A program made the position numbers and the translations under genes. Under the pieces are notes generated by a model, which was not told where the DNA came from, ran no database searches, and saw only the letters and a list, made by a program, of their open reading frames with translations. Below, piece by piece: positions 5,061 to 39,795 of a DNA stretch of 42,182 nucleotides (its first letter is position 1; each line of letters opens with the position of its first letter). The stretch is taken from the IMG/VR virus record IMGVR_UViG_3300045988_148823, positions 1 through 42,182 of that record, one strand, 5' to 3'. The DNA is from a virus.

Positions 5061-5061
5061 T

Positions 5062-12172: not shown

Positions 12173-12301
12173 TGTTTATTTTATTGGTAATATATGTTAA
12201 AATATAATTAAAATAACATTACATAAGTAAGAATATATTATCTTTATTTTAATCTTATTCTAAATGTTTCTATATTTTGTAATTATTATGTATTTTGATT
12301 C

Positions 12302-12338
12302 AAAAGAAGCTATTGTGTTGTTGCGATAGCTTCTTTTA
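12302..12338. terminator. Hairpin terminator closing the lysis operon (A-run and T-run on either side, possibly bidirectional)
   Basis: GAAGCTAT (12306-13) pairs with ATAGCTTC (12326-33), flanked by aaaa and tttt. Confidence 0.75.
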
Positions 12339-12462
12339 CTTGCTACAATATAAGTATATCCAACTTTAATTTGCAACACTCGAGTTGTAGAGTATAAATT
12401 TAACAGTTAATCGGCTAAAGATTACAATATCAACAAACAATCATATAAGTTCAGTAAAAAGG

Positions 12463-12489
12463 GAAGCTATGGGATCAGCTTCTTTTTTT
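12463..12489 (+). terminator. Rho-independent terminator
   Basis: GAAGCT (12463-68) pairs with AGCTTC (12477-82), followed by T7. Confidence 0.65.
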
Positions 12490-12652
12490 ATGTTTAAAAT
12501 TAGGCAAATAAAAAAGACTGCTTAAAAGTATTTACTTTTATTTTTTTTTTGATATAATTAAAATTAGTTATAGGGTAAACCCATATTAATGTATCATCTA
12601 TAAGGATATAAGCTGTCTATTTTGGTAGCCGTTATTATGGTTCCATAACACT

Positions 12653-12671
12653 AGCCCATGAGGGCTTTTTT
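12653..12671 (+). terminator. Rho-independent terminator
   Basis: AGCCC (12653-57) pairs with GGGCT (12662-66), loop atga, then a T-run. Confidence 0.6.
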
Positions 12672-12811
12672 ATTTTTAAAATTATTATTTAAAAATATAA
12701 TTAAGTTGTACAATAAGTTTATAATTATTGTCTAGATTTTTGAAATTCCACAAATTTATATCCAAATTATTCTAACGTTTTAATGGCTTATACTTTTCTG
12801 TATAGGCTATT

Positions 12812-12985
12812 TTAATTTGAATGACACACACAGCATCTATCATATTCAAATCTTTGATACTTACCACAAAATCTACAATATTGAAAATTATTATTATAAC
12901 TACTCTCACTATAAAAGTTATCTTGGTGATTTCTTTCCCAGTAATAGCCTCTATTATCCTTATCTTGATTAAATATATTAAACAT
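12812..12985 (-). CDS. Small Asn/Tyr-rich Cys-containing protein (57 aa), hypothetical
   Basis: My translation of a frame below the track cutoff: MFNIFNQDKDNRGYYWERNHQDNFYSESSYNNNFQYCRFCGKYQRFEYDRCCVCHSN*. It is more protein-like than the two Ile-rich track ORFs covering the same DNA. The RBS is weak. Confidence 0.35.
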   Translation of the reverse strand: MFNIFNQDKDNRGYYWERNHQDNFYSESSYNNNFQYCRFCGKYQRFEYDRCCVCHSN

Positions 12986-13071
12986 ATAACCGACCGCCCT
13001 TTAAAATCTAATTTAAAAGGTATTATAAGCATATCTGAATATATTTATACATAAAAAGACTAGAAATTAAT

Positions 13072-13263
13072 CTAGTCTAAATCAAAATCTAAACATATTT
13101 CAAAATCATTCATAATATATTCATAGCAAGCTTTGTGAATATATTCAAATTTTTCTTCTTCACCCATTCCTTCTAATTCATTGTCATCTATTTCTATTTC
13201 AAAAGAATGATCTCTTCCTCCCACACTATAACCTAAACAATAAACTCCGAAATCTATTTTCAT
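13072..13263 (-). CDS. Small highly acidic protein (63 aa), hypothetical
   Basis: Strong RBS aggagg (complement of 13272-77). Rich in Asp/Glu (EIEIDDNELEGMGEEEKFEY...DFDLD). Confidence 0.6.
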   Translation of the reverse strand: MKIDFGVYCLGYSVGGRDHSFEIEIDDNELEGMGEEEKFEYIHKACYEYIMNDFEICLDFDLD

Positions 13264-13355
13264 TTTATCGTCCTCCTATATAATAAAAGAATTATTTTAT
13301 TTTGTTCTATAAATATTTTCTATATTTTTATTTTCCAAGAAGTCTAAAATTAAAC

Positions 13356-13466
13356 CTATCTCGTGTATTTTGCCGATATTCTTATTTGATTTGGTAGATT
13401 ATCCTCAACTTCCTTTTGTTGTTTTAAAAACATATATCTTAATTTTAAAAAATCTTTAAACTCCAT
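13356..13466 (-). CDS. Micro-ORF (36 aa), hypothetical
   Basis: MEFKDFLKLRYMFLKQQKEVEDNLPNQIRISAKYTR*. RBS aaggaag upstream. Confidence 0.3.
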   Translation of the reverse strand: MEFKDFLKLRYMFLKQQKEVEDNLPNQIRISAKYTR

Positions 13467-13492
13467 AATTAACTTCCTTTTCTAAATAAAGA

Positions 13493-13660
13493 TTATATTT
13501 CATCACATATTTCAAATTTATCACATTCTTCTTCGTTTGTTATATCTACAACTTTACACCAACAATTATATAAAGTTTCATTTTCAAATATAGTGTAAAT
13601 TGATTTTCTCATATGTTTACATTTCCAACATTTGCTTGTTTGGTTTATATCTTGATACAT
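13493..13660 (-). CDS. Small zinc-ribbon-like protein (55 aa)
   Basis: MYQDINQTSKCWKCKHMRKS...YNCWCKVVDITNEEECDKFEICDEI*. RBS ggaggt upstream. CxxC and CxC pairs present. Confidence 0.5.
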   Translation of the reverse strand: MYQDINQTSKCWKCKHMRKSIYTIFENETLYNCWCKVVDITNEEECDKFEICDEI

Positions 13661-13716
13661 ATATACCTCCGTTTAAAATACAATTTTTATCTTAATTTAT
13701 TAAGTTGTTTTATTTT

Positions 13717-13818
13717 TCATAATATTCTTCGATTTTCGTGTCTTGCGATGTATTTAAACCCTAAATAATAGGCGTATTTTAATTCAACATATTCTTTATC
13801 TGTCAATTTGATATTCAT
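13717..13818 (-). CDS. Micro-ORF (33 aa), hypothetical
   Basis: MNIKLTDKEYVELKYAYYLGFKYIARHENRRIL*. RBS aaagga upstream. Confidence 0.3.
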   Translation of the reverse strand: MNIKLTDKEYVELKYAYYLGFKYIARHENRRIL

Positions 13819-13842
13819 AATTTAAATCCTTTCTAATAAAAA

Positions 13843-14019
13843 TTATATTTTATCTTTCTCAATAACTATCTTTCCTTCTGATTCAGTTATTTTTATTTGT
13901 CTATCTTCTATACTAATACCTAACGTTTCAATAACCCAACTTGGCAAACTTAATTTGTAAATGTAAGAGTTTGGTCTATTTTTAACCTTCTGTATGCTTA
14001 TATTCCTAATTGCTTCCAT
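13843..14019 (-). CDS. AbrB/SpoVT/MazE-type DNA-binding protein (58 aa)
   Basis: MEAIRNISIQKVKNRPNSYIYKLSLPSWVIETLGISIEDRQIKITESEGKIVIEKDKI*. RBS ggaggg upstream. The pattern ..LSLPSWVIETLGI..(D)..I.I....G.IVIEK fits the swapped-hairpin AbrB fold. Confidence 0.55.
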   Translation of the reverse strand: MEAIRNISIQKVKNRPNSYIYKLSLPSWVIETLGISIEDRQIKITESEGKIVIEKDKI

Positions 14020-14073
14020 AGTCCCTCCTATCTAATCAGTAAAGGCTTTTTATAATGAGCCACCACTTTTGTA

Positions 14074-14367
14074 TTAAACTTCTTCTGTATAAGTAATATG
14101 TAAATCATTGCCTTCTATTTCCCACCAGTAATGTTCATTATCATTAAATAAATCTATATCTTTAAAAATTTCTAATTCTTCATTTGTCATTGATAAAGCT
14201 ATATATACACTTTCCGTACCCATTTTACCTGTTCTTAACACTTCTCTATCTATTGCACTTTCTATTCTTTCTACTATTTCCCTAATTATTTCGATATTTT
14301 TATCTTTCTTTAACCTATATTCTAATTCATTTGAAACATCAAATATTGTTTGGATATCGAATCCCAT
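14074..14367 (-). CDS. Acidic hypothetical protein (97 aa)
   Basis: Track ORF. RBS aaggagga upstream. Rich in Glu/Asp. Confidence 0.65.
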   Translation of the reverse strand: MGFDIQTIFDVSNELEYRLKKDKNIEIIREIVERIESAIDREVLRTGKMGTESVYIALSMTNEELEIFKDIDLFNDNEHYWWEIEGNDLHITYTEEV

Positions 14368-14508
14368 AAGTAATCCTCCTTTTTTAATTCTTTCATATCT
14401 AATCCCATCCTTTTATTTTTTATTTGATAACTTTTTTAACTTGTTATCTTAATTATATTATATCTCGTTAGTGCCTAACAGTCAACGATATTTATAAACT
14501 TTTTTTAA

Positions 14509-14640
14509 TTATTCTTCTATAACTATAGCAATTATTTTTTTATTTTGGTCAATTATAACTTTCTTGCCTTCTACTAAATGCCATTTCCAATAGTTAGGCA
14601 CTTCGATTATTTTATCATTTTCAAGTAATTTTATTTTCAT
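14509..14640 (-). CDS. Small hypothetical protein (43 aa), first gene of the leftward cluster
   Basis: An internal ATG at 14640 is preceded by aggagg (complement of 14645-50). The track start at 14700 has no RBS. Protein: MKIKLLENDKIIEVPNYWKWHLVEGKKVIIDQNKKIIAIVIEE. Confidence 0.55.
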   Translation of the reverse strand: MKIKLLENDKIIEVPNYWKWHLVEGKKVIIDQNKKIIAIVIEE

Positions 14641-14717
14641 TTTTCCTCCTTTGTGGTATGAGCTGTTTATCTCTACTAGGTGTTTGTAAAATTTTAACAA
14701 TTATATTGTATATGAGT

Positions 14718-14744
14718 TTATCCACAATATCCACATAATCCACA
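14718..14744. promoter_or_regulatory. Three contiguous DnaA-box 9-mers
   Basis: TTATCCACA (14718-26, perfect consensus), ATATCCACA (14727-35) and TAATCCACA (14736-44), head to tail. Confidence 0.7.
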
Positions 14745-14782
14745 AATATTGTTTATAGCTTAAACCGTTGAAAATACTGCAC

Positions 14783-14892
14783 ACGTTCAGTGGAATTGAC
14801 GGTATAAATAAAAATATAATACCCACACGTTCCGTGGAATTGACGGGGTACGTTCCGTGGAATTGACGGGGTTAATTCGATGGAATTGAACA
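14783..14892. repeat. Iteron array: four direct copies of about 20-22 bp, ACGTTCCGTGGAATTGACGGGG
   Basis: Copies lie at 14783-14802, 14827-14848, 14850-14871 and about 14873-14892 (degenerate). The core TGGAATTGA starts at 14791, 14835, 14858 and 14881, giving spacings of 44, 23 and 23 nt. The array is GC-rich against an AT-rich background. Confidence 0.85.
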
Positions 14893-14971
14893 AAGATAGA
14901 TAAGTTATTATAGGGAAATTATTATAGATAATATATATATAATAAAAAAATTTTAGTTTTTAATAAAAAAC

Positions 14972-15000
14972 ATATACATATCCTATTAAGTATGTTATAA
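14972..15000 (+). promoter_or_regulatory. Putative sigma-A promoter for the 15032 operon
   Basis: Extended -10 TGtTATAAT (14992-15000). -35-like tataca at 14972-77, 17 nt upstream. Sits inside the AT-rich tract 14893-15000. Confidence 0.5.
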
Positions 15001-19017: not shown

Positions 19018-20184
19018 ATGATAATAAATTTAGGTAAATATTCTTTTTTAAATAATGCAAAAGAAAAAATTATTAATTTAATTTGTGATAAATTTAATAT
19101 AGCAGACTATCCAAATCTGCATAGTTTTATAGATGTTAAGCAGTTAGATGTTATAAATGTATATGATAATGAAGTTTTGTATAAGTTTAAATTAAGACTT
19201 AAAAGACATGGAGAAGTTACAATAAATAATTTAGAAGATTATAGAGAAGTAATTGAAAATATAGTTGAAAGATCTATAAATTTTAAGATAGTTGATTATA
19301 AAAATATATATGTAGAAGTTTTGTATTCAGATCAAGAAAAAGATCAAGAAAATATAGGAATCAGTAACACAATTAAATATGAATATATGCCTACAGAAAC
19401 TTTTGATAAGTATAAAGTTGATAATACTATAAAGTATCAATTCAAAGAAGGAGAAAAGGAAGGGCTTAGCTTTTATTTAGGTAAAGATTTAGAAGGTAAT
19501 GACTTCAAGATAGATATATTAGATGGTAGCTTATTAATAGGTGGCATGACTGGGGCAGGGAAATCTAATATTGTAAATGTATTGATTGCAAGCTTAATGC
19601 TTACTTATACTGAAAAAGAATTAGTTTTCTTAGGTTGTGATATGGCTGAATCTGATGTGTATTATTTCAGAAATCATAAACATTTTAGAGGAATGTCTAC
19701 TACTTGTGGTAAGTTTTTAGAACAAGTTGAATGGTTAGAAAAGAAGTTTAAAGAAAGAGCAAAAATATTAAATGATGCAGGGTGCAGAAATGTAGTAAGT
19801 TATAATCAAAAGCATGATACAAAAATGAGTTACTTTGTATTTGTAATAGATGAAGTTGTATTATTGACTAGAAATAGTAAATGTAAAGATAAGCTTCACG
19901 ATATAATGTGTGTAGGAAGAAAGTATGGATGTTATTTTATATTATGCTTACAAGATGCTACAAAAGACACTATAGGTAAATGCAAAATGAATTGCCCACA
20001 AGTTATAGGACTTAGAACTAATGATGAAACTGATAGCAATACTATTATAGGCAAGGGGCATAATTTACAAGATATAAAAGACGTAGGAAGATGTAAAGTT
20101 AAAAATAAAAATGGAGTTACAGAAGTTCAAAGTTATTTTATAGAAGAAGATTTAATAGATAAATTATTAAAAGGCTGTAAATAG
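19018..20184 (+). CDS. FtsK/SpoIIIE-family P-loop ATPase, with no TM segments and no gamma domain
   Basis: Walker A LLIGGMTGAGKSNIVN, Walker B YFVFVIDEVVLL, and GRKYGCYFILCLQDATKDTIGKCKMNCPQVIGLRTNDETDSNTIIG match the FtsK motor core. The roughly 170-aa N-terminal region is unrecognised. Confidence 0.8.
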   Translation: MIINLGKYSFLNNAKEKIINLICDKFNIADYPNLHSFIDVKQLDVINVYDNEVLYKFKLRLKRHGEVTINNLEDYREVIENIVERSINFKIVDYKNIYVEVLYSDQEKDQENIGISNTIKYEYMPTETFDKYKVDNTIKYQFKEGEKEGLSFYLGKDLEGNDFKIDILDGSLLIGGMTGAGKSNIVNVLIASLMLTYTEKELVFLGCDMAESDVYYFRNHKHFRGMSTTCGKFLEQVEWLEKKFKERAKILNDAGCRNVVSYNQKHDTKMSYFVFVIDEVVLLTRNSKCKDKLHDIMCVGRKYGCYFILCLQDATKDTIGKCKMNCPQVIGLRTNDETDSNTIIGKGHNLQDIKDVGRCKVKNKNGVTEVQSYFIEEDLIDKLLKGCK

Positions 20185-22221: not shown

Positions 22222-22908
22222 ATGGAGATAAGATTATTAAAAGCTAATGAAATAGAGTGCAGAATAGGGACTTTTAAAGAAGGTAAGGGAATTAGCTTAT
22301 TACTTTACAAAGATGCTAGGGTTGACATGAGAATACTTGATGAAGTATTTGGGTTTGACGGTTGGGAAAGAGAACATCAGCTTATAGACGGTAAATTATT
22401 TTGTACAGTAAAAGTGTGGAGTGAAAAAAGGAATTGCTGGATAAGTAAGCAAGATGTAGGAACTGAAAGTAATACAGAAAAAGAAAAAGGGCAAGTATCA
22501 GACAGTTTTAAAAGAGCGTGTTTCAACTTGGGAATAGGTAGAGAATTATATACTTCACCTTTTATATGGATCCCAGCTTCAATGGGGTATAGTAAATATG
22601 AAAAATTTGAAGTTAAAGAAATAGGCTATAATGATGATAGAGAAATAAATATGCTAGTTATAGTTGATAGTAAAGGTAAAGAATGTTTTAGATTTGGAGA
22701 TAAAATCAAATCAACGAGAAGCGAAGTTACAGAAGCTATGGTAAAAGCACTTTATAAAATAGCTAACGATAAAGGCTATAGTGATGATATAGTTGAGAAA
22801 GCTTCTAAAAGAGATTATGGAGATAATGTAATAGATATATCAATGAAAAATTATATGACTTTAAAAGCTAAGTTGGAAGGGCTTGAAGCTAAAAAAGTAG
22901 GGGCTTAA
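22222..22908 (+). CDS. Rad52/Sak-type single-strand annealing protein
   Basis: DARVDMRILDEVFGFDGWEREH...KQDVGTESNTEKEKGQVSDSFKRACFNLGIGRELY matches the Rad52_22 signature (..LdevFG..gW.. and ..SDa.KRA...fGIGr.LY). Confidence 0.8.
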   Translation: MEIRLLKANEIECRIGTFKEGKGISLLLYKDARVDMRILDEVFGFDGWEREHQLIDGKLFCTVKVWSEKRNCWISKQDVGTESNTEKEKGQVSDSFKRACFNLGIGRELYTSPFIWIPASMGYSKYEKFEVKEIGYNDDREINMLVIVDSKGKECFRFGDKIKSTRSEVTEAMVKALYKIANDKGYSDDIVEKASKRDYGDNVIDISMKNYMTLKAKLEGLEAKKVGA

Positions 22909-23049: not shown

Positions 23050-23664
23050 ATGGGGGAAAAAAAAGGAATTGATATAAAACGCTGCAAATACAAGGTTGTA
23101 GTTGATAGCAGGGAGAAAGTTAATAAGCATATATTAAATAGCTTTGAAAAGGGCTTTGAGTATAAAGTATCTCACCACGATATGTATAGAGGGAAGAAAT
23201 CTAAAATAGGTGATCCAATAGAATATTACATTCAAGAAAAAGGTTTAAAAGTTGGAGATTATACTATTGCAGTACAGTTGCCAAACAAAGAAGTTATTAA
23301 TTTTAAAGATAAAGTAGTCATAGAACGTAAAACAGATTTAAATGAGTTGTGTTGTAATCTATTTGATAAGAAAGACGAAGAAGGGAAAACAAGATTAGAA
23401 AGAGAATTAGAACGAGCAAAAGAACAAGGAATAAAAGTTTATTTAGTAATTGAAACTACTGATATGCACAGTAAAATATTATCTAGTAAACATTTTAGAT
23501 ACGACAAAGCTTCTAAAGTATCTCCTGCTTCATTTAATGCTATTCTAATGGCTTTGTGTAGCAGATACAATATAAATGTATGGTATACAGATAAAGCTAA
23601 TTCAGGCAGATTGATACATGATTTATTATATTATGAAGCTAGAGAATATTTAAAAAATATTTAG
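23050..23664 (+). CDS. ERCC4/XPF-type (PD-(D/E)xK) nuclease, putative recombination or resolution nuclease
   Basis: VVVDSREK ... LKVGDYTIAV ... VVIERKTDLNEL fits the ERCC4 pattern D..E / GD(Y/F) / ERK..D. Lies next to the annealase. Confidence 0.6.
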   Translation: MGEKKGIDIKRCKYKVVVDSREKVNKHILNSFEKGFEYKVSHHDMYRGKKSKIGDPIEYYIQEKGLKVGDYTIAVQLPNKEVINFKDKVVIERKTDLNELCCNLFDKKDEEGKTRLERELERAKEQGIKVYLVIETTDMHSKILSSKHFRYDKASKVSPASFNAILMALCSRYNINVWYTDKANSGRLIHDLLYYEAREYLKNI

Positions 23665-24026: not shown

Positions 24027-24206
24027 ATGAAGGTAAAAGAATATAGGCTTTTAAATGGATATACACAAACTGAAATTGCTAATATTTTGAATATAAAACA
24101 AAATAGTTATAGTAATAAAGAATTGGGGAAAAGATCTTTTACAATCGAAGAAATAAAACTATTAAAAGAATTGTTTAAGGTTACTTATGAGGATTTACTG
24201 AATTAG
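24027..24206 (+). CDS. XRE-family HTH protein (59 aa)
   Basis: MKVKEYRLLNGYTQTEIANILNIKQNSYSNKELGKRSFTIEEIKLLKELF... RBS gggggagg upstream. Below the track cutoff. Confidence 0.65.
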   Translation: MKVKEYRLLNGYTQTEIANILNIKQNSYSNKELGKRSFTIEEIKLLKELFKVTYEDLLN

Positions 24207-24222: not shown

Positions 24223-24954
24223 ATGAGTTATACAGTAATAGAAAATGATTTTTTTGATAACAATAGTTTAAAAATTAATACATGGGCAGTATTAATGTTT
24301 TTGTTAAGATATGAAAATAAAGATAAGGGATATGCTTACCCTTCACAAAGTATGCTTTTAAAGAAAACTGGATTAAGTAAAGTTACTCTTTTAAAATGCT
24401 TGAATGAGTTAGAAGAGAGAGGATATATAACCATAAAAAAAAGCAATGGGGAAAATAATAAATATTACATTAATGCAAATATAAAAAATGATACCAATAC
24501 TAAAATTAGTACCGGTACTAAAAATAGTAGTACTGAAATTAGTACCGATACCTGTACTAAAAATAGTACCCTACAATTACTAAATAAAAATAATAAAAAA
24601 GAAAAAGGAAAAAAGAAAACTAGTTTAGATGAAATTATAGAAACTTATACTGAAAATGATTCATTAAAAGAAACTATAAAAGATTTTATTAAAATGAGAA
24701 AAACTATTAAGAAACCAGTTACAGATAGAAGTCTTAAATTAACATTAAATAAATTAGATCAGTATGGGAGAAATGATTTGGAAAAAATAGAGATACTTGA
24801 AAATAGTATTATGAATTGTTGGCAAGGAGTATTTGAATTAAAAAATAAAAAAGAACCTACTGCAATAGGTTCTGATAAAAATAAAAATATTAAAGTTAAT
24901 CCTAGTATATGCAATAGTGGGAGAAAATATTCAAGGGGAGTTGAAATGTTGTGA
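24223..24954 (+). CDS. Replisome organizer / DnaD-like replication protein (wHTH N-terminus, DnaD-like C-terminus)
   Basis: N-terminal YAYPSQSMLLKKTGLSKVTLLKCLNELEERGYITIKK. C-terminal LKETIKDFIKMRKTIKKPVTDRSLKLTLNKL...ILENSIMNCWQGVF is typical of phage replisome-organizer C-termini. Followed directly by the primase-helicase. Confidence 0.7.
   Translation: MSYTVIENDFFDNNSLKINTWAVLMFLLRYENKDKGYAYPSQSMLLKKTGLSKVTLLKCLNELEERGYITIKKSNGENNKYYINANIKNDTNTKISTGTKNSSTEISTDTCTKNSTLQLLNKNNKKEKGKKKTSLDEIIETYTENDSLKETIKDFIKMRKTIKKPVTDRSLKLTLNKLDQYGRNDLEKIEILENSIMNCWQGVFELKNKKEPTAIGSDKNKNIKVNPSICNSGRKYSRGVEML
24497..24569. repeat. Array of four 16-bp palindromes (GTACT-N6-AGTAC) inside the replisome-organizer gene; candidate lytic origin
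   Basis: aTACTaaaattAGTAC 24497-512; GTACTaaaaatAGTAg 24515-30; GTACTgaaattAGTAC 24530-45; GTACTaaaaatAGTAC 24554-69. Confidence 0.8.
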
Positions 24955-26783
24955 TAGATATTAAAAAAATAATTGATGATATAAAAAATCAAATAAGAGC
25001 AGAAGAAGTTAAAAATAAAATAGCTTCTGATTTAAATTTAAAATTAGATAAATCAAATAAATGCTTATGTTTTAACCATAATGAAAAAGTTCCAAGTATG
25101 AGTTTTGATATGAAAGCTAAAAAATTTAGATGTTTTAGTTGTGCTCATACTTACGATATATTTAATCATTATCAAGAATATTATAATAAATCATTCATAG
25201 AAGCCGTAAAATCTATTGTAAACGATTTTAATATATCAACTGATAAATTAATCATTAACACAGAAAGAAAAGCTATAAAGACACCTACAATCCACAAAAA
25301 CAATATTTCTAAATCTATTTCATATATAAATAAAAGATGTATAAGTGAAAACACAATAAAGTATGCAGATGTTAGAGAAGATGATAAAGGTAATATAGTG
25401 TTTATTTATAAAAATGAATTAGGAGAACATATAACAAATAAATACAGACCTAGTTACAAGATAGATAAAAGTAAAAAACAATTAAAGACTTGGTTTGAAG
25501 CTGAAACTAACATAAATACTTTGTACTTAATGGATAAAGCAGATATAACTAAACCATTGGTAATATGCGAAGGTGAATTTGACTGTTTAAGTCTTATCGA
25601 AAGTGGGATTAAAAATGCAGTAAGTGTTCCGACTGGATGCAAATCTACTGAATGGATCACAACTAACTGGACTTGGTTAGAGCAATTTGAGGAAATAATT
25701 CTTTGGTTTGATAATGACGAAGCTGGTAAAGAAGGGGTAAAAGAAGTATTTAACAGATTACCTAACAAAACTGTAAAAATAGTTTATTCAGATATATGCA
25801 ACGATATAAATGAAATATTATTTAAGTATGGTAAATTAGCAGTATTAAAGCAATTTGAAAAAGCTTCTATTCCTCTTATTGACGGAGTTAAAAGCACTAA
25901 GCAAATATCAACTTTTAACATATACGAAGCTGAAACAATTCAAATAGGAATAAAAAAAATAGATGATAGAATAATTGGTTTGCCTCTTGGAAGCTTAAAT
26001 GTAATAACTGGAAGAACTGGAGAAGGTAAATCGACTATATTAAATCAATTTTTTATAGGGGAAAGTATAAGGCAAGGATATAAAGTATTTTTATTTAGTG
26101 GAGAACTTACAGAAAGTAATGCTAAAGGTTGGCTTTTAGATACTTTAGCTAACAAAGATGATTTATTAGAATTTACAAATAAAAAAGGATATAAATATAA
26201 AAAACTTTCATCAAAAGCAGTAAGCAAAATAGATGATTTTTTAGAAGATAAATTTTTCCTATATACAGAAGAAGATTACACTATAAATGCAATTATATCT
26301 AAAATGGAAATCATGGCTAAAAGATATGGTGTAAAAGTATTCTGTATAGATAATTTAATGGTTACTGAAAATGACGAAAAAGAAGAGTTGAGAAATCAAA
26401 CTGAAATAGTTAAAAAATTAAAAAGTTTTGCTAAAAAATATAATGCAATAGTTCATTTAGTAGCACATCCAAGAAAGGCACAGAACGGTCAAACTGGACT
26501 TGATAAATCTGATATAAGTGGATCGGCTAATATAACTAACCTAGCAGATTATGTAATGATAGTTCAGAGAATAAAAGATGAAGAAGATGCGACTAAAGAT
26601 AAGCATACTATATTAACTATAGATAAAGATAGATATATGGGTAATAGATTAGGAATTGAATTATTATTTGATAAAGATAGAAGAAGATTTTATTGTTTGA
26701 ATGGTAATGGAGAAGAATTAGAAGTTAATTATTTATTAGAAGAATTTGAACAAATAGAAGGGGAATGGACATGGGAAGATTAG
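24951..26783 (+). CDS. Bifunctional primase-helicase (zinc finger + Toprim + DnaB/RecA-type helicase)
   Basis: Zn motif CLCFNHNEKVPSMSF..FRCFSCAHTYD. Toprim VICEGEFDCLSL...WFDNDEAGKEG. Walker A ITGRTGEGKST, Walker B VFCIDNLM, and HLVAHPRK. GTG start overlaps the upstream stop. Confidence 0.85.
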   Translation: MIDIKKIIDDIKNQIRAEEVKNKIASDLNLKLDKSNKCLCFNHNEKVPSMSFDMKAKKFRCFSCAHTYDIFNHYQEYYNKSFIEAVKSIVNDFNISTDKLIINTERKAIKTPTIHKNNISKSISYINKRCISENTIKYADVREDDKGNIVFIYKNELGEHITNKYRPSYKIDKSKKQLKTWFEAETNINTLYLMDKADITKPLVICEGEFDCLSLIESGIKNAVSVPTGCKSTEWITTNWTWLEQFEEIILWFDNDEAGKEGVKEVFNRLPNKTVKIVYSDICNDINEILFKYGKLAVLKQFEKASIPLIDGVKSTKQISTFNIYEAETIQIGIKKIDDRIIGLPLGSLNVITGRTGEGKSTILNQFFIGESIRQGYKVFLFSGELTESNAKGWLLDTLANKDDLLEFTNKKGYKYKKLSSKAVSKIDDFLEDKFFLYTEEDYTINAIISKMEIMAKRYGVKVFCIDNLMVTENDEKEELRNQTEIVKKLKSFAKKYNAIVHLVAHPRKAQNGQTGLDKSDISGSANITNLADYVMIVQRIKDEEDATKDKHTILTIDKDRYMGNRLGIELLFDKDRRRFYCLNGNGEELEVNYLLEEFEQIEGEWTWED

Positions 26784-28326: not shown

Positions 28327-28728
28327 ATGAATAAAATAATAATTAGTGGTCGTTTAGTTAGAGATGCAGAGCTTAGCTATATAGCTTCTACTGCTACACC
28401 TAAAATGAGTTTTTCAATAGCAGTAGAAAGAGCATATCAAAAGGATAAAAATAATAAAAAAGTTGATTTTATAAACTGTGAAATGATAGGGAAGCATACA
28501 GAAAATTTATGTCAGTATGTAACTAAGGGAAAACAAATATTAGTAGAAGGCGAGTTAAACATTGATAATTATGAAAAAGACGGAGAGAAAAGAAGCTTCA
28601 CTAAAGTAAAAGTTGATAGATTAGAGTTTTTAGGTGGGAATTCTAATGCTAATACTGAAAATAAGCAAAATAATGAATATAAGATAGAAGAATTCAACGA
28701 TTTTGACGAAGATGAAATACCATTTTAG
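28327..28728 (+). CDS. ssb: Single-stranded DNA-binding protein
   Basis: MNKIIISGRLVRDAELSY...VDFINCEMIGKHTENLCQYVTKGKQILVEGEL...VDRLEFLG has an OB-fold SSB pattern. The acidic tail ends DEDEIPF. Confidence 0.9.
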   Translation: MNKIIISGRLVRDAELSYIASTATPKMSFSIAVERAYQKDKNNKKVDFINCEMIGKHTENLCQYVTKGKQILVEGELNIDNYEKDGEKRSFTKVKVDRLEFLGGNSNANTENKQNNEYKIEEFNDFDEDEIPF

Positions 28729-32820: not shown

Positions 32821-33264
32821 TTGAGTTTAACCATAAAACAAGAAATATTCGTACAGAGATTGATTGAAGGCTATTCTCAAAGAGAAGCCTATAAATTCGC
32901 ATATAATTGCGAGAAAATGAAAGATGAAAGCATAGATATAGAAGCTTCTAAATTATTTAATAACCCTAAGATTTCCCTAAGGTATCAAGAGTTGTTAGAT
33001 GAATATAAGGAAAAAGCTAAATGGAACAGAAGTAAAGCAGAAGAAAAGCTTATGTGGTTACTTGATAAATCTCAAGAAGATATTGAGTACAAAGGATTGA
33101 AACAAGCTAATAGTTCATCAATGCTTAATGCTATAAAAGAATTGAATACCCTTACTGATTTATATCCTAAAAAGAATAAAGAGGATAATAATCTAGAAGA
33201 TAGAGAAGCCGAAAAAATAGCTAATGCAATTCTTGAGTTAAGAGGTAGAAATGGAACTAGATAA
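32821..33264 (+). CDS. terS: Terminase small subunit
   Basis: TTG start after aaggaggtg. LTIKQEIFVQRLIEGYSQREAYKFAY...ASKLFNNPKISLRYQELL is typical of Terminase_2/P27-type small subunits. Confidence 0.8.
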   Translation: MSLTIKQEIFVQRLIEGYSQREAYKFAYNCEKMKDESIDIEASKLFNNPKISLRYQELLDEYKEKAKWNRSKAEEKLMWLLDKSQEDIEYKGLKQANSSSMLNAIKELNTLTDLYPKKNKEDNNLEDREAEKIANAILELRGRNGTR

Positions 33265-33898
33265 TTATACCGAAAAACAAATAGAGGTTTTAGAAAGTTT
33301 CGCTATTGATAATCCTAAGATATTAATATGTAGTGGAGCAAAAAGAGCAGGTAAGACTTTTATACTTATTAAAATATTTTTAGCTCATGTATCATTATTT
33401 AAAAATCAAGGATTAAGCTTCATAATTGGGGGAACTACTCAAGCTTCAATTAGAAGAAATATATTAAATGACTTAGAAGCTATTTTAGGCAGAGAAATAA
33501 AGTTTAAAGATGATGGACATTTTCCTTTATATGGAAATAAGATTTATTGCTTTCATGGGGCTAATGCCGACAGTTACAAAGCTATGAGAGGTTTTACGAG
33601 TGCAGGTGCTTTACTTAATGAAGCTACTACATTACATGATACTTTTGTAAAAGAAGCTATTTCAAGATGTTCTTATGATGGTGCTAGAATTTTTATGGAC
33701 ACTAACCCAGAGAACCCTACTCATACAGTAAAAGTTAATTACATAGACAAAGATGGTCAAAGACTTAAAAATGGTCAATTAAATATAAAAGCTTTTAATT
33801 TTACTTTGTATGATAATACTTTTTTAAATAAAGAATATGTGGAAAGTATTGAAGCTTCTACACCTAGTGGAATGTTTTATGATAGAGATATTTTGGGT
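33251..33898 (+). CDS. terL: Terminase large subunit, exon 1 (ATPase domain)
   Basis: Walker A ILICSGAKRAGKTF and Walker B-like ALLNEATT. The protein-like sequence stops making sense after ...YDRDILG. The track ORF runs on 21 codons into the intron. Confidence 0.8.
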
Positions 33899-34937
33899 AA
33901 ACCTATTGCCCCGTATATCAGTAATGGTATATTGAAAATCGGGTTAAAATTGGAAGGCTAAGTTAATGATGAATAAGTTAATAGAATTGTGTTATAATAT
34001 ATATAAGGAGTGTGGGTGTTATGATTATTATATATTCTATAACAAATACTATTAACAATAAAAGATATATTGGTATATCACAAGATTATAAGAACAGAAA
34101 AAGAGTTCACGAATGGGCTATGAAAAACAATAAGCACAGAAACATTAAGCTTCAAAGAGCAGTTAATAAGTATGGGTATGATAATTTTAAATTTGAAGTA
34201 CTTGAAGAAATTGAAACTGATGACAGAATCGAAGCACTTACTTTAGAAAATAAATATATTATTAAATATGATACATATAAAAATGGTTATAATCAAAGTG
34301 AAGGTTTTGAAGGTAGCACTTTGCAAAAGTATTCAAAAGAAAGACTTGAAAAAATGCGAGTTAATATGCTTGGGAATACAATATGGGAAGGGAGAAAGCA
34401 TACAGAAGAAGCTAAAGCCAAGATAGGCAAGGCTCACAAAGGTAAAATTGTAAGCCTAAAAACTAGAGAAAAAATAAGTAAAGCTAATAAAGGCAAAGCT
34501 ATTGGAGAAAATAATCATTTTTATGGTAAAAACCATACAGAAGAAACTAAATCTAAAATAAGAAAAAAGAATGGTAAACCTATTATATGTATAGAAACAT
34601 CTATAAAATATGATAGTATAAACCAATGTGCTAATGATATGAATATAGATAGGAAAGCTATTGAACGAGTTCTTAATGGTAAATACAAGCAAACAAAAGG
34701 ATATACATTTAAATATATATAATCATTAATATGCTAATCAATTACCAATCCTAAAGAGAAATCTTAGGAAGGTTTAACGACTAGATAAAGTAAGCTAAAT
34801 ATTAAAGACCGAAAGGTCTTTTTTATATGCAGAAATATCCACGAAATCCGAGTTCCTAATGGGAATATGAGATAGTCTGAACTTATAGGAAACTATAAGA
34901 AGTAGAGGATAAAGAGCCTTTACGATAACAATAATTG
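33899..34937 (+). mobile_element. Group I intron interrupting terL, carrying a homing-endonuclease ORF
   Basis: Exon 1 ends in T (33898), which can wobble-pair with G33908 in a short P1 (GGGT/GCCC). The intron ends in G (34937). AGATAGTC at 34870-77 resembles the conserved J8/7-P7 element, with a complementary GACTA at 34779-83. GNRA hairpin AAAGACC-gaaa-GGTCTTT at 34804-21. Joining the exons gives ...YDRDILG|TWVASEGVVYQDF, the conserved terminase junction. Confidence 0.7.
34021..34722 (+). CDS. GIY-YIG homing endonuclease (I-TevI-like, with NUMOD3-type repeats)
   Basis: ATG at 34021 lies 10 nt after aaggag. MIIIYSITNTINNKRYIGISQDYKNRKRVHEW is the GIY-YIG segment. Three repeats: GRKHTEEAKAKIGKAHKGK, SLKTREKISKANKGK and GKNHTEETKSKIRKKNGK. 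Confidence 0.85.
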   Translation: MIIIYSITNTINNKRYIGISQDYKNRKRVHEWAMKNNKHRNIKLQRAVNKYGYDNFKFEVLEEIETDDRIEALTLENKYIIKYDTYKNGYNQSEGFEGSTLQKYSKERLEKMRVNMLGNTIWEGRKHTEEAKAKIGKAHKGKIVSLKTREKISKANKGKAIGENNHFYGKNHTEETKSKIRKKNGKPIICIETSIKYDSINQCANDMNIDRKAIERVLNGKYKQTKGYTFKYI

Positions 34938-35510
34938 ACATGGGTTGCTAGTGAAGGAGTAGTGTATCAAGACTTTAATAAAGATAAACATTATATAAAA
35001 AATATAGATAAAGTTGATATTAAAAAATACTTTTGTGGTGTCGACTTTGGGTGGGAACATTATGGCTCAATAGTAGTAATTGGAAAAGATATAAATGATA
35101 ATTATTACTTAATAAAAGAATATGCTTACCAACACAAAGACATAGAAGAATGGATTGATATAGCCAAAGAAATTAAAGCTAAGTATGGCAATGTTAATTT
35201 TTATTGCGACCATGCTAGACCTGATTATATAGATAAACTTAAAAGAAGCGGTATAAGAGCAATAAATGCTAATAAAGAAGTATTAGAAGGTATTTCAATG
35301 ATAGCTAAATTATTTAAAACAGATAAGCTTTTTATACTTGAAGATAATGTAACTAGATTTAAAGATGAAATATACAATTATGTATGGCAAAAAGGGAAAG
35401 ATGAACCAGTTAAACAATTTGATGATGTTTTAGATAGTTTAAGATATGCAATTTATTCAGAATCAAAGAGAACTGGCAAAATGTTTGATAGAAACAAATA
35501 TAACGTATAG
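34938..35510 (+). CDS. terL: Terminase large subunit, exon 2 (nuclease domain)
   Basis: TWVASEGVVYQDF...CGVDFGWEHYGSIVVIG...FYCDHARPDYI...DDVLDSLRYAIY is a RNaseH-like terminase nuclease pattern. It has no RBS or ATG of its own. Confidence 0.8.
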   Translation, partial: TWVASEGVVYQDFNKDKHYIKNIDKVDIKKYFCGVDFGWEHYGSIVVIGKDINDNYYLIKEYAYQHKDIEEWIDIAKEIKAKYGNVNFYCDHARPDYIDKLKRSGIRAINANKEVLEGISMIAKLFKTDKLFILEDNVTRFKDEIYNYVWQKGKDEPVKQFDDVLDSLRYAIYSESKRTGKMFDRNKYNV

Positions 35511-35520
35511 GAGGTGTATT

Positions 35521-36888
35521 ATGAGAAAAATAAAAATAGATAAAGATTATACTTTAACTAATGATTTAATACTTGATTTAATAGATAAACATTCAGCAGA
35601 AAAATCAAGATTAGAAAAGCTTCTAAGATATTACAATAACGAAAATGACAAGATAAGTAATAGAGTATATAAAAATAAAAATAAACCACAGAATAAGCTA
35701 TCTCACCCTTACGCTCAATATATAACTGACACAGCAGTTGGTTATCTATTAGGTAAACCTATTGCTTATACTACAGAAGATAAAAAGCTTCTTGAAGAAC
35801 TTACAGATATATTTAAATATAATGATGAAACTGATAATAATACAACTTTAGCAAAGATGGCTTCTATATATGGTTATGCTTATGAAATAATGTACATAGA
35901 TAAATTTGCTAAGCCTAGATTTAAAGCAATAGATCCTTCTCAATTAATAGTTTGCTATGATAATACTTTAGAAGAAAATATAATATTAGCAATTAGATAT
36001 TATGATGAAATAGTTAGAGTTAATGATGAAGATGAAAAAATAACTAGACTTGAAATATACACTAAACCTACTCAAAATGATAAAGGGCAAATAATTGCTA
36101 ATGGTAAAATCATAAGAGGAACTGTGAAAGATAAGAACATAGTTTTATCAGATGAAGAAGATTGTTATTTTGATGATATACCAGTAAATGTATATATCAA
36201 TAATGACGAGTTATATGGGGATTTTGAAAAAGTAATAAGCTTAATAGATGCTTACGACCAAAGTCAATCTGATACTGCTAACGATTTTGAACTATTTACT
36301 AATTGTATGCTTGTAGTTAATGGTGAATTAATAGACGACGAACAAGCTAAAGACTTAAATGACATAAATTTAATACAATTTTTAAATTCAGATAGTGATG
36401 CAAAATATCTTATAAAAGATATACAAGATACTGCTTTAGAGAATTATAAAAATAGATTAAATGAAGATATACATAGATTTAGTTTTGTGCCTAATATGAC
36501 TGATGAAAATTTCAGTAATAATGCTAGTGGTATCGCGATGAAATTTAAACTTATGGGACTTGAAAACTTAGTAGGAGTTAAGGAAAGTAAATTTAAAAAA
36601 GGTTTAATGAGAAGAATAGAGTTATTATGTGCTTATACTAAGATGAAAAATAATAGCGACTATTCTTATTTAGCTATTGAGCCAGTCTTTACTAGAAATA
36701 CTCCTAATAATGAGTTAGAGTTATCACAAATAATGCAAAACTTAGATGGAATTTTAAGTGAAGAAACTATAATTGGGATGTCGCCTAGAGTTAGTGATAT
36801 TCAAGCAGAAATAGAGAAAAAAGAAAAAGAAGCTAATAAGCTTTATGAGGATAATTATTCTGAATTAGGTGATATAGATGAAGAATAA
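35521..36888 (+). CDS. Portal protein (SPP1 gp6-like)
   Basis: ATG at 35521 follows ggaggtg; the track start at 35446 lies inside terL. 455 aa. N-terminal ...RLEKLLRYYNNENDKI resembles the SPP1-type portal. Confidence 0.8.
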   Translation: MRKIKIDKDYTLTNDLILDLIDKHSAEKSRLEKLLRYYNNENDKISNRVYKNKNKPQNKLSHPYAQYITDTAVGYLLGKPIAYTTEDKKLLEELTDIFKYNDETDNNTTLAKMASIYGYAYEIMYIDKFAKPRFKAIDPSQLIVCYDNTLEENIILAIRYYDEIVRVNDEDEKITRLEIYTKPTQNDKGQIIANGKIIRGTVKDKNIVLSDEEDCYFDDIPVNVYINNDELYGDFEKVISLIDAYDQSQSDTANDFELFTNCMLVVNGELIDDEQAKDLNDINLIQFLNSDSDAKYLIKDIQDTALENYKNRLNEDIHRFSFVPNMTDENFSNNASGIAMKFKLMGLENLVGVKESKFKKGLMRRIELLCAYTKMKNNSDYSYLAIEPVFTRNTPNNELELSQIMQNLDGILSEETIIGMSPRVSDIQAEIEKKEKEANKLYEDNYSELGDIDEE

Positions 36889-37909
36889 TTTATCTAATGA
36901 AGAATATTGGACCAAAAGAGAAGCTTATAAACTCAAAAAAGGTTTAAAAGATTTAAAGAAAATAGAAAAAGAATTAGTTAATGAATATAAAAAAGCTATG
37001 AATGAGATAGGTAAAGAAATTAGTAATTTATTTTATAAATATGCTAAAGATAATAACCTATCTTATTCTGATGCAAAAAAATATTTAAACAGTAGCGAAT
37101 TTAGAGAATTTAAAAGAGATTTAAAATCTTATATGAAGCTTATCGAGGAAACTGGTGATGATGAACTTTTACTTGAATTAAATACTTTATCAATGAAAAG
37201 CCGTATAAGCCGTTTAGAAGAAATATTTTATCAATGTGGTAAATATATCAATAAAGTATATGAAAACACTAATAAAAGGCTTCAAATAGCTTATAGTAGC
37301 ACTATAAAGGATAATTATTACCAAACTATATATGATATACATAAAGCTATAGGTATTGGTGTTAGTTTTTCATATATTGATAATGATATGATAAAAGAAA
37401 TATTAGCTTTTCCCTGGAGTGGTAGACATTATAGTCAAAGGTTATGGAGTAACAGAACTAAATTAAAAAATGCTATGGTTGAGGAACTTACTCAAATGCT
37501 TATACAAGGTAAAGGAGTAAGAGAAACTTCTAGGGCATTATCTAAAAGATTAGATGCAGATTTAAAGAATTGTATTAGGCTTATACACACTGAACATAGT
37601 TACTTTATGGGAGAGTCAACTGCAAAAGCTTATGAAGAATTAGAAGTGGATAAATACCAATTCCTTGCTACTTTAGACAATAGGACTTCTGAAATATGCC
37701 AAAAGTTAGATGGAAAAGTATTTGATTTAAAAGATAGAGTAGTTGGAGTTAATGCTTCGCCTATGCACCCAAGATGTAGAAGTTGTGAGATCCCTTATAT
37801 AGATAATAATTACTCAACTAGATTTGCAAGAGATAGTAAAGGTAAAAGAATAGAAGTCCCATCAAGTATGACTTATAAAGAATGGAAAGAAATTTATAAA
37901 ATAGATTAA
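36878..37909 (+). CDS. Head morphogenesis protein (SPP1 gp7 / Mu F-like)
   Basis: C-terminal LATLDNRTSEICQKLDGKVFDL...ASPMHPRCRSCEIPY is the family signature. Confidence 0.8.
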   Translation: MKNNLSNEEYWTKREAYKLKKGLKDLKKIEKELVNEYKKAMNEIGKEISNLFYKYAKDNNLSYSDAKKYLNSSEFREFKRDLKSYMKLIEETGDDELLLELNTLSMKSRISRLEEIFYQCGKYINKVYENTNKRLQIAYSSTIKDNYYQTIYDIHKAIGIGVSFSYIDNDMIKEILAFPWSGRHYSQRLWSNRTKLKNAMVEELTQMLIQGKGVRETSRALSKRLDADLKNCIRLIHTEHSYFMGESTAKAYEELEVDKYQFLATLDNRTSEICQKLDGKVFDLKDRVVGVNASPMHPRCRSCEIPYIDNNYSTRFARDSKGKRIEVPSSMTYKEWKEIYKID

Positions 37910-37973
37910 TACATTTAGTAAAAGCTAAATTACTTTTTCTTTTTTATATAGTATTTATTATAGTACTTATAGG

Positions 37974-38049
37974 GTACTAAAATTAGTACGGGTATCGGTA
38001 CTAAAAATAGTACGGGTGCTAAAAATAGTACCGGTACTAAAAATAGTAC
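37974..38049. repeat. Second array of four GTACT-N6-AGTAC palindromes, in a non-coding gap of the head module
   Basis: GTACTaaaattAGTAC 37974-89; GTACTaaaaatAGTAC 37998-38013; GTgCTaaaaatAGTAC 38016-31; GTACTaaaaatAGTAC 38034-49. Same motif as 24497-24569. Confidence 0.85.
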
Positions 38050-38255
38050 GGGTGAATAAAAAAATAAAGAGAAGGGTGCCATTTAGATTTTTATAGAAAG
38101 TATGGTCATAAAGATAACACTAAAGAACAATTTGAAGAATTTATTAAGACTAGGTAACTGGTCTTTTTTTTATTGTCTTTTTACTTGTTGTAGACACTAA
38201 AGAATAACTCGGAAAACTTAAAAGCCTACTATGGCTATAAACTAGGAGGATTAAA

Positions 38256-38858
38256 ATGGAAAAAACTAAAAACAACGTTGTTAATAATGAAGTAGATAAA
38301 ATAGCTTCAGATGTTCATGATAAGCTAATTAAAGGAACAGATGTAGAAGCTAAAGATGTTAAGACTTTCACTCAAGATGAAGTTGATAAGATGATTTCTA
38401 AAAGACTTCAAAGAGAAAGAAAAGATATAGAAGCTAAGATTGAAGCTGAACGAAAAGAAGCAGAAGAATTAGCTAAATTATCTGAACAAGAAAAACAAAA
38501 GAAATTATTTGAAAAACAAGTTAGGGAATTTGAGGAAACTAAAAAAGCATTTGAAGCTGAAAGGTTATTAAATGAAACGTCAAAGCAATTAGCTTCTAAA
38601 AATTTACCTATAGAATTTGCTCAAATGTTAAAAGGTGAAGATGCTGAAAGCACTTTTAATAATATAAATGTGTTTGAAGCTAAATTTAATGAAGCCTTAG
38701 AAAAAATGGTAACTGAAAGACTAAGAGGGGCGACTCCAAAAGTTGCAACTACAAGCAATGGAATAACTAAAGAAGAATTTAAGAAAATGTCTTTAGCACA
38801 ACAAGCAGAACTTGCAAAAAAAGATAAAGATTTATATTTAGAACTATCAAAAAATTAA
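38256..38858 (+). CDS. Capsid scaffolding protein
   Basis: 200 aa, highly charged coiled coil (FTQDEVDKMISKRLQRERKDIEAKIEAERKEAEELAKL). Lies immediately upstream of the capsid gene. RBS aggagga. Confidence 0.75.
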   Translation: MEKTKNNVVNNEVDKIASDVHDKLIKGTDVEAKDVKTFTQDEVDKMISKRLQRERKDIEAKIEAERKEAEELAKLSEQEKQKKLFEKQVREFEETKKAFEAERLLNETSKQLASKNLPIEFAQMLKGEDAESTFNNINVFEAKFNEALEKMVTERLRGATPKVATTSNGITKEEFKKMSLAQQAELAKKDKDLYLELSKN

Positions 38859-39671: not shown

Positions 39672-39754
39672 TCAAGACCTAGGCGAAGATCTAGGAGTTG
39701 CAAAAGCATCTATAGAAGATGTTAAGCCTAAAAGAACTAGAAAAACTAAGAAGG

Positions 39755-39780
39755 TAGAGGAATAATCCTCTATCTTTTTT
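39755..39780 (+). terminator. Rho-independent terminator after the capsid region
   Basis: TAGAGGA (39755-61) pairs with TCCTCTA (39766-72), loop ataa, then a T-run. Confidence 0.8.
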
Positions 39781-39795
39781 ATATAGGTGATAATT

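Follow-up and report, generated by a model that had tools for sequence, protein, structure and literature searches.

The window analysed here is the whole 42,182-nucleotide (nt) stretch of the IMG/VR virus record IMGVR_UViG_3300045988_148823, a 42.2-kb phage genome with 27% G+C, and the element in question is an array of short palindromes lying in a non-coding gap among its head genes. This gap (37910-38255, 346 nt) separates a MuF-like head-morphogenesis gene from a scaffold gene, as the end of the one open reading frame (ORF) at 37909 and the beginning of the other at 38256 confirm. The head module is SPP1-like, the portal gene upstream of the MuF-like gene matching SPP1_portal (PF05133) with an E value of 5e-106, and a MuF protein identical to that of the window is also encoded in a contig from a human gut metagenome. 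The original prediction, made from the letters of the window, had described the gap correctly and had added that the gaps between structural genes elsewhere stay below 25 nt. This was too strong, as gaps of 115 nt (39672-39786), 212 nt (34723-34934, beside a homing endonuclease gene) and 68 nt (658-725) exist; nevertheless, the 346-nt gap is the largest of them.

Strict matches to GTACT-N6-AGTAC number five in the window (24530, 24554, 37974, 37998 and 38034) against 0.05 expected, and none of 100 shuffled sequences reached five. When the whole window was searched for GTACTAAAAATAGTAC with up to three mismatches, four sites were found in the gap (Table 1), with start-to-start spacings of 24, 18 and 18 nt, and four within the gene of a putative replisome organizer 13.4 kb upstream, at 24497, 24515, 24530 and 24554 (spacings 18, 15 and 24 nt). 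No site was detected in the window outside these two arrays, which thus share the sites exclusively. Both arrays had been predicted, and the positions and spacings of the gap palindromes stood; only the third is not perfect, since it reads GTGCT..AGTAC, with one mismatch. The gap copy is the nearer to the consensus, its sites having 1, 0, 1 and 0 mismatches versus 2, 1, 2 and 0 in the coding copy, and it constitutes the best-scoring tandem repeat of the window (Tandem Repeats Finder, period 18, score 102-121). As predicted, one frame of the array reads GTKISTGIGTKNSTGAKNSTGTKNSTGE and is closed by stops. A minus-strand ORF of 50 amino acids (aa) at 37930-38082 was rejected as a gene, since it results from reading the palindromic array in reverse and its ATG has no Shine-Dalgarno-like motif in front.

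The organizer is composed of an N-terminal winged-helix domain, a low-complexity linker bearing the repeats, a C-terminal domain of its own and a 36-aa tail shared with other organizers. Its best family, PHROG 678, is labelled 'replication initiation O-like'. The intragenic sites lie in the linker-coding part (aa ~92-116), between A/T tracts at 24450-24489 and 24560-24619 that belong to the least stable 4-6% of the 40-mers of the window. Similarly, an easily melted tract (37926-37972) adjoins the gap array, and the 40-mer 37930-37969 within it falls in the least stable 0.8%. In phage lambda, ori is located in gene O, with repeats in the linker between the DNA-binding and interaction domains of the protein and an adjoining A/T-rich region. 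To our knowledge, this is the only origin of lambda, whose head genes contain no further copy. The organizer array of the window resembles the ori of lambda, as described in Stx phages (PMC7466680), in that its repeats are likewise placed in the initiator linker beside A/T tracts, and the PHROG label points the same way.

A precedent for two copies is found in the Bacillus subtilis phage SPP1, in which oriL lies inside the organizer gene 38 and oriR is a non-coding segment that, with three moron genes, interrupts the order of the head genes; oriL and oriR are separated by about 13 kb of the circular genome, share a design of repeats plus an A/T-rich unwinding element, and are bound by the organizer gp38 with similar affinities (PMC6316719, PMC3485210, PMC5737612, PMC3561973). 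It has been proposed that gp38 bound to oriR stalls a replication fork and triggers the theta-to-sigma switch (PMC6316719, PMC3485210, PMC5737612, PMC3561973). In the SPP1 record, gene 7 ends at 4728 and gene 8 begins at 5064, and in the 335-bp gap between them (4729-5063) two groups of AAAGACAC-type repeats are found together with a terminator and an A/T-rich tract, the whole being paralogous to the middle of gene 38. The window reproduces this layout in many respects: an array in the organizer linker (oriL being at aa ~98-135 of gp38), a non-coding copy between the counterparts of SPP1 genes 7 and 11, similar distances between the copies (~13 kb and 13.4 kb), A/T-rich tracts adjoining the repeats, an SPP1-like head module, and a segment bracketed by transcription signals and shared with morons or mobile genes.

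On the basis of the exclusive sharing of sites, of this synteny with SPP1 oriR and of the covariation between gap and organizer-gene repeats presented below, we consider that the gap probably represents, with a probability of roughly 0.7, a selected organizer-binding equivalent of oriR, that is, a non-coding second copy of the origin repeats of the organizer gene. The same three lines of evidence support the suggestion in the original prediction of a second origin-type array serving the organizer protein. The features of both loci are collected in Table 1.

Table 1. Features of the organizer gene and of the slot between the MuF-like and scaffold genes in the window.
Feature	Position	Strand	Evidence and remarks
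Replisome-organizer (initiator) gene	24223..24954	+	243 aa; HTH_36 3.6e-11 and DnaD_N (Pfam); PHROG 678 5.7e-31
Intragenic array, oriL-like copy	24497..24569	+	Four 16-bp sites: ATACTAAAATTAGTAC, GTACTAAAAATAGTAG, GTACTGAAATTAGTAC, GTACTAAAAATAGTAC
MuF-like head-morphogenesis gene	36878..37909	+	PF04233 6.9e-16; counterpart of SPP1 gene 7; left border of the slot
A/T-rich left arm, candidate DNA-unwinding element	37910..37972	no strand	Alignable with L173, identical in L353
Head-gap array, oriR-like copy	37974..38049	no strand	GTACTAAAATTAGTAC 37974, GTACTAAAAATAGTAC 37998, GTGCTAAAAATAGTAC 38016, GTACTAAAAATAGTAC 38034
Remnant of the 3' end of an HNH homing-endonuclease gene	38068..38157	+	29 sense codons and stop (38155-38157), no start codon
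Intrinsic-terminator-like hairpin and T8 run	38146..38171	+	AAGACTAGGTAACTGGTCTT, T8 at 38164-38171; right edge of the exchangeable cassette
Conserved block	38166..38204	+	TTTTTTATTGTCTTTTTACTTGTTGTAGACACTAAAGAA; nearly invariant in 9 aligned phages, including L173 (MuF 37% identical)
Small hairpin/palindrome	38223..38236	+	AGCC-TACTAT-GGCT; 8 nt upstream of the ribosome-binding site (AGGAGG, 38244-38249) of the scaffold gene
Scaffold gene	38256..38858	+	DUF4355 1.8e-28; counterpart of SPP1 gene 11; right border of the slot

Close relatives were taken to be 13 IMG/VR contigs (given here by L numbers) whose MuF proteins are 80-92% identical to that of the window. A generic k-mer screen for paired arrays proved too noisy in A/T-rich DNA, and a screen anchored on the gap was used instead. 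No close phage was found in INPHARED by megablast, and distant blastn searches there gave only short coding matches and the match of the HNH remnant described below. All 13 contigs carry a repeat array directly after the MuF stop codon, composed of at least five unrelated repeat units: CTAACAACAAT (L003, and in part L001, L002, L005, L006 and L008), AGGGCAA with an 11-bp period (L007, L009-L012), AGACAGTTGAT (L008), TTATGTGATAT (L001, L002, L005, L006), and a GTATG-N7-CATAC palindrome (L004, L013). The A/T-rich tract follows the repeats in the direct-repeat cassettes and lies upstream of the sites in the palindrome cassettes (L004, L013 and the window), and a terminator closes every cassette of this group, including that of the window. 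The borders are sharp, with the MuF stop codon on the left and the T-run of the terminator on the right. The scaffold protein of L002 is 100% identical to that of the window next to a completely different cassette. The original prediction had named absence of the array from close relatives as a sign of a scar; alignment showed on the contrary that an array is kept in 13/13, as an exchangeable cassette.

In several of these contigs about 900 bp are found between the portal and MuF genes that are absent from the window (L005, L006, L008, L010-L013), probably another gene inserted in the head module.

The identity of the repeats covaries with that of the organizer gene, and specifically with its N-terminal domain. 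This could be read at both places of the same contig in four contigs, as well as in SPP1 and the window. In each of the four, the repeats of the head gap are of the type present in the organizer gene of the phage itself (L003/L035 and L002/L246, CTAACAAYAAT; L010/L037 and L007/L040, GGGCAA), and the whole origin architecture is duplicated: a repeat group, a spacer of ~40 bp, a second repeat group, CACTATCAAAGAA and an A/T-rich tract. A matrix of the 9-mers shared between head gaps and organizer genes is dominated by its diagonal, with 12 for the window versus at most 3 for foreign combinations, 18-34 for the other phages and 24 for SPP1. The organizers of these relatives are homologues of gp38 (Phg_2220_C; C-terminal domain 36% identical to that of gp38, E 1e-18), those of L034, L035, L037, L040 and L246 being plain members of the gp38 type. 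From this covariation we infer that both arrays of the window are bound by the organizer. Since the relatives keep an initiator-matched copy at the same spot, this copy would be a working part of replication control rather than a scar.

A neutral recombination scar had indeed been considered in the original prediction; it would here consist of a decaying duplicate of part of the organizer gene and of homing-endonuclease debris. The gap does hold dead material, the sharply bounded slot is a hot spot of recombination, and the spacings of 24, 18 and 18 nt, all multiples of three, together with the coding-like frame suggest descent from a coding sequence. However, the conservation of the slot and the match to the resident organizer in every pair readable at both places contradict this explanation, as do the invariance of the repeat cores against drifting spacers and the lower degeneracy of the sites in the gap compared with those in the gene. 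In the non-coding copies of L007, L009 and L010, none of 42 GGGCAA core columns varies versus 14 of the 120 others (p = 0.012), which suggests that this copy is under purifying selection. Therefore we regard the scar as very unlikely.

The XRE-like gene at 24027-24206, just upstream of the organizer gene, offers another possible reader of the sites, as 5-bp arms around a 6-bp spacer are typical for dimeric helix-turn-helix proteins. Its product is 98% identical between the window and L246, in which the repeats are of an unrelated class, and the determinant of specificity would thus be the N-terminal domain of the organizer and not the XRE-like protein. More generally, the array could act in transcription or as RNA, either as operators of such a protein or as four hairpins of the late transcript serving attenuation, processing or stability. 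The gap folds as RNA far better than shuffled sequences (z = -6.1) and terminator-like signals bracket it; on its left, a weak hairpin (37913-37930 in the RNA fold) and the T-rich run after it could weakly terminate the MuF transcript, and an extra AGTAC half-site lies at 37962. But the direct repeats found in the slot of relatives have no potential to form hairpins, the sites recur within coding sequence at a distance of 13.4 kb, and an Rfam search of 37600-38500 gave no match except a chance long non-coding RNA at E 0.69. No sigma-70 promoter was found in the gap. The GC-skew profile of the window follows the direction of transcription and gives no origin or terminus signal. A role of the array in transcription or as RNA seems to us highly improbable.

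Also listed in the original prediction was a centromere-like partition site, here of a plasmid prophage, an idea to which a clustered non-coding repeat array would fit. A scan of ~40 ORFs of the window, including part of the small ones, against Pfam and PHROGs revealed no integrase, no repressor-size gene and no ParA/ParB-type or other partition gene. The absence of an integrase among the scanned ORFs could speak for a plasmid state, but that of partition genes argues against a centromere; furthermore, the repeats match the initiator's own intragenic sites, and the virulent phage SPP1 has the same layout. We attribute hardly any probability to this explanation.

Beyond the close relatives, an exact scan of IMG/VR for GTACTAAAAATAGTAC returned at least 119 scattered single matches, none with three or more sites, and was uninformative. 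A two-site pattern gave no match in IMG/VR and two informative contigs in the metagenome collection, L353 and L354, both from metagenome ERZ1034678. In the 37.5-kb contig L353, MuF is 92% identical to that of the window and the scaffold protein only 38%; its cassette is nearly identical to that of the window, with four sites spaced 24, 18 and 18 nt, and all changes fall in the A/T spacers whereas the arms are intact. The 9.7-kb contig L354 encodes an organizer 71% identical, with four intragenic sites spaced 18, 15 and 24 nt. In L173, which has a different head module (MuF 37% identical), GTACTAAAATTAGTAC and GTACTAAAATTGATAC sites follow an A/T-rich tract in the slot and precede a terminator directly, and in L033 (organizer 66% identical) GTATTAAAATTGATAC sites lie inside the organizer gene. 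Sites of the window type are not confined to the window. In the distant prophage L198, which has another replication module, the Prim-Pol and VapE-like helicase genes are followed immediately by an ori-like segment of ~265 bp that combines GTTAGGTT repeats and a GTTGATATATCAAC palindrome with an A/T-rich tract, and a second segment, 83% identical to it, is located between the MuF (PF04233) and scaffold (PF06810) genes of this prophage.

Several observations weigh against an equivalent of oriR in the window. Most of the distant MuF-bearing phages surveyed show no obvious repeats in the gap, so that the two-copy layout is recurrent but not universal. For the L004/L013 cassette, no matching second array was detected: an exact scan found this repeat type only in the head gaps and in one chance match in a terminase gene, and it does not occur in the 10 kb upstream of the terminase, the sequence covered not extending to the organizer regions. 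The low stability of the A/T flanks is weak evidence, as it discriminates poorly in a genome with 27% G+C. With regard to SPP1, the barrier role of oriR is itself a proposal, and only oriL was shown to drive replication in vitro. Moreover, SPP1 has direct AB boxes whereas the sites of the window are 16-bp palindromes in an 18-bp array; L003, L007 and L010 have direct repeats. The window organizer shows no homology to gp38 that could be detected in its C-terminal two thirds (BLASTP E 2.7). The Phg_2220_C domain, which scores 2e-20 in gp38 and 3.4e-27 in L035, was not found in it, and its N-terminus gives only weak matches to PHROG 428 (2.3e-9) and PHROG 186 (2e-11), both also matched by gp38, which indicates remote similarity only. 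Because of this lack of homology and of the palindromes in place of direct repeats, the SPP1 mechanism may not transfer. Finally, all function in this phage is deduced from sequence comparison. The palindromic sites and the organizer without the gp38 C-terminal domain thus make the window a variant of the SPP1 kind, from which it departs also by a fused primase-helicase (Zn-ribbon, Toprim, DnaB_C; 24951-26783, the gene after the organizer) in place of the gp39 loader and gp40 helicase, and by its host, a low-G+C gut bacterium.

If the gap is an equivalent of oriR, the following sequence of events could be envisaged. Dimers of the winged-helix domain of the organizer would bind the four GTACT-N6-AGTAC sites and form a nucleoprotein complex beside the easily melted tract. 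By extrapolation from SPP1, replication would start at the intragenic origin, and the complex on the gap array, 13.4 kb downstream, would then serve as a late origin or as a fork barrier; collision of a fork with this complex would make theta replication give way to concatemer synthesis that depends on recombination. For this switch the phage could supply its own Erf-like annealase (22222-22908), ERCC4 nuclease (23050-23664) and single-stranded DNA-binding protein (28327-28728), all encoded near the organizer gene. The dead HNH 3' end and the terminator in the cassette would be passengers from earlier traffic at the hot spot. That a fork barrier or switch is the main role of the array is, by analogy with SPP1, a real possibility, which we put forward tentatively. 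Tus/Ter and the RTP/Ter system of B. subtilis are replication fork barriers, and under the SPP1 model a winged-helix protein tightly bound to short repeats may likewise arrest a fork, with the difference that in the window this protein would be the initiator itself and not a dedicated terminator protein.

The same organizer-binding element might have as its main role the firing of a second origin, back-up or late, which would double the capacity for initiation or start replication of the late region. The cassettes of relatives and of SPP1 reproduce a full origin architecture (two repeat groups, spacer, A/T-rich tract), the window array borders one of the least stable 40-mers of the genome, and the SPP1 literature calls oriR an origin, with an affinity similar to that of oriL. 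However, in the SPP1 literature found, no initiation from oriR is reported and only oriL has been reconstituted, and the window cassette lacks the A-rich tract that follows the intragenic array, the HNH remnant being there instead. We therefore hold this role to be doubtful.

Another role would be that of a sink or handcuffing site for the organizer, which would limit re-initiation or time the end of theta replication without fork collision. In iteron plasmids, extra initiator-binding arrays away from the origin control initiation by handcuffing or titration, and by analogy the gap array may do the same. Equal numbers of sites in both arrays and their matched specificity speak for such a role, and the closeness of the non-coding copy to the consensus would suit a high-affinity sink. 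On the other hand, four extra sites are few against an abundantly expressed early protein, and titration alone leaves the fixed position in the head operon across phages unexplained. This position and the location in a phage genome distinguish the window from iteron plasmids as well, and a sink seems to us unlikely.

The slot of several relatives also encodes a stand-alone origin-binding domain of 92 aa (L001:5117-5395 and L008:5163-5441; also L002, L005 and L006), which resembles the N-terminus of gp38-type organizers with 38-40% identity (E 4e-17 and 5e-16). Repeats of its own (TGTGATAT or AGACAGTT) are found in its promoter region and downstream, beside the repeats of the resident organizer. 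Its role could be that of a regulator, of a specialised barrier protein, or of a decoy aimed at other phages. The genes in L001 and L008 are the nearest approach to a dedicated barrier protein among the phages studied.

A broader hypothesis, which we find attractive yet somewhat doubtful, is that the place between the MuF and scaffold genes is a dedicated slot for exchangeable origin cassettes in widely different siphoviruses of Firmicutes whose head modules resemble that of SPP1. A matching origin copy would be installed for any replication module, whether gp38-type, O-like or Prim-Pol/VapE, because a programmed encounter of fork and initiator would set the concatemer switch just upstream of the genes of the packaging substrate. 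Under this hypothesis, the role of the stand-alone domains could be that of a specialised fork barrier, or of a decoy directed at phage competitors.

Knowledge of SPP1 oriR goes back almost 30 years, but the literature found still treats its role as a proposal, and no other phage with this layout turned up there. Our data indicate that the two-copy layout is not an oddity of SPP1, as it recurs at the same place in gut phages and in other phages of Firmicutes. Beyond the literature found, the exchangeable cassettes appear to stay initiator-matched across at least three types of replication module: the second copy is kept in register through repeated module swaps, including those to an unrelated organizer type and to a Prim-Pol/VapE module. 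The matching kept through these swaps constitutes comparative evidence of selection on initiator binding at the slot. The relatives thus provide a panel of natural specificity variants for the study of how the theta-to-sigma switch is triggered. Also, a rule for annotation follows, namely that repeats after MuF which match repeats in or next to a replication gene locate the origins of a phage and identify the binding site of its initiator.

Right of the array, the startless 29-codon frame (38068-38154) and the T8 run noted in the original prediction are both present. The frame ends in ...GCHLDFYRKYGHKDNTKEQFEEFIKTR*; on its left lie the array and, at 38065-38067, a stop. It had been proposed to be a piece of another phage's replication gene, a view that a better match displaces: the DNA at 38080-38148 matches, with 81% identity over 69 bp (E 3e-8), the terminal part of a frameshifted HNH endonuclease gene (...LCKDHHFNFHKQYGYKNNTKEQFEEYLK) in the head module of Staphylococcus phage S-CoN_Ph26. 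The two C-terminal ends, ...HHFNFHKQYGYKNNTKEQFEEYLK in the remnant and ...CHLDFYRKYGHKDNTKEQFEEFIK in S-CoN_Ph26, match at 14 of 23 aa. The similarity of the remnant peptide to the C-terminal end of HNH endonucleases takes in the last part of the HNH motif, and tblastn with this peptide retrieved annotated HNH endonucleases of Vibrio, Bacillus and Sporosarcina phages. By sequence, 38068-38157 is what is left, at the 3' end, of a dead HNH homing-endonuclease gene, accompanied by the terminator of that gene; 29 codons are left, and an intact frame with start and catalytic core is absent from this segment. An origin of the frame as a relic of the organizer gene was dropped because the HNH match is better: the protein alignment was marginal (score 38 versus 23±3.6, a score reached by 5 of 2000 shuffles) and the DNA alignment of the segments following the two arrays was not significant (176 of 1000 shuffles). 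The remnant is present in L353 and absent from L173.

The T-run and all that follows it are conserved in all relatives, while the stem of the terminator differs between cassettes. The block after the T-run has across the aligned phages the nearly invariant form TTTTTTATTGTCTTTT(T)ACTTGTT..TAGAC..TAAAGAA. It forms the right-hand recombination border and is a candidate late-promoter, activator or regulator site, although no sigma-70 consensus was found in it. Closer to the scaffold gene, the small hairpin at 38223-38236 varies among relatives by symmetric double changes (AGTC..GACT and AGCT..AGCT), a pattern that points to a conserved RNA stem or to a site bound by a dimer.

At the other locus, the last 36 aa of the organizer are 69% identical to those of the L035 organizer and are common to the gp38-type organizers of relatives. 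This tail (24880-24954, ...NKNIKVNPSICN...) is shared with L034, L035 and L246, otherwise unrelated organizer types found beside the same primase-helicase, and is presumably the part in contact with this conserved protein. Its distribution suggests that a helicase-docking tail can be passed between organizers and that the gene contains a recombination joint.

Homing elements appear to be active in this lineage, given the HNH remnant and a second element that splits the large terminase gene (33251-35510): a GIY-YIG/NUMOD3 homing endonuclease gene (34012-34722) separates the ATPase part (33251-33961) from the nuclease part (34935-35510, Terminase_6C). Elsewhere in the window, a 23-nt tandem repeat, TTCCATGGAATTGACGGGGTAAA, occupies 14827-14889 with 2.6 copies, the first two exact. 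It lies at a divergent junction between minus-strand small ORFs (12.7-14.7 kb) and the plus-strand early genes, and looks like an operator or control region. The minus-strand block within 12000-15000 consists of small ORFs only, one of them with DUF7167. An FtsK/SpoIIIE-like ATPase is encoded at 19018-20184.

With regard to the host, a search in representative genomes revealed no close prophage, the best matches being 71% in Zhenhengia and 62% in a metagenome-assembled genome of Fusobacteriaceae. In a relative (IMGVR_UViG_3300029820_000108), an array resembling clustered regularly interspaced short palindromic repeats lies downstream of the primase-helicase gene (L035:6982-7472, equal to L162:3289-3779), with a variant in L036. 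It has eight exact copies of GTTTTATACTAACTATGTGGTATGTAAAT with unique spacers of ~37 nt, and no copy occurs in the window. We take this repeat to resemble the type I-B repeats of Clostridioides difficile, which would hint at a host among the Peptostreptococcaceae.

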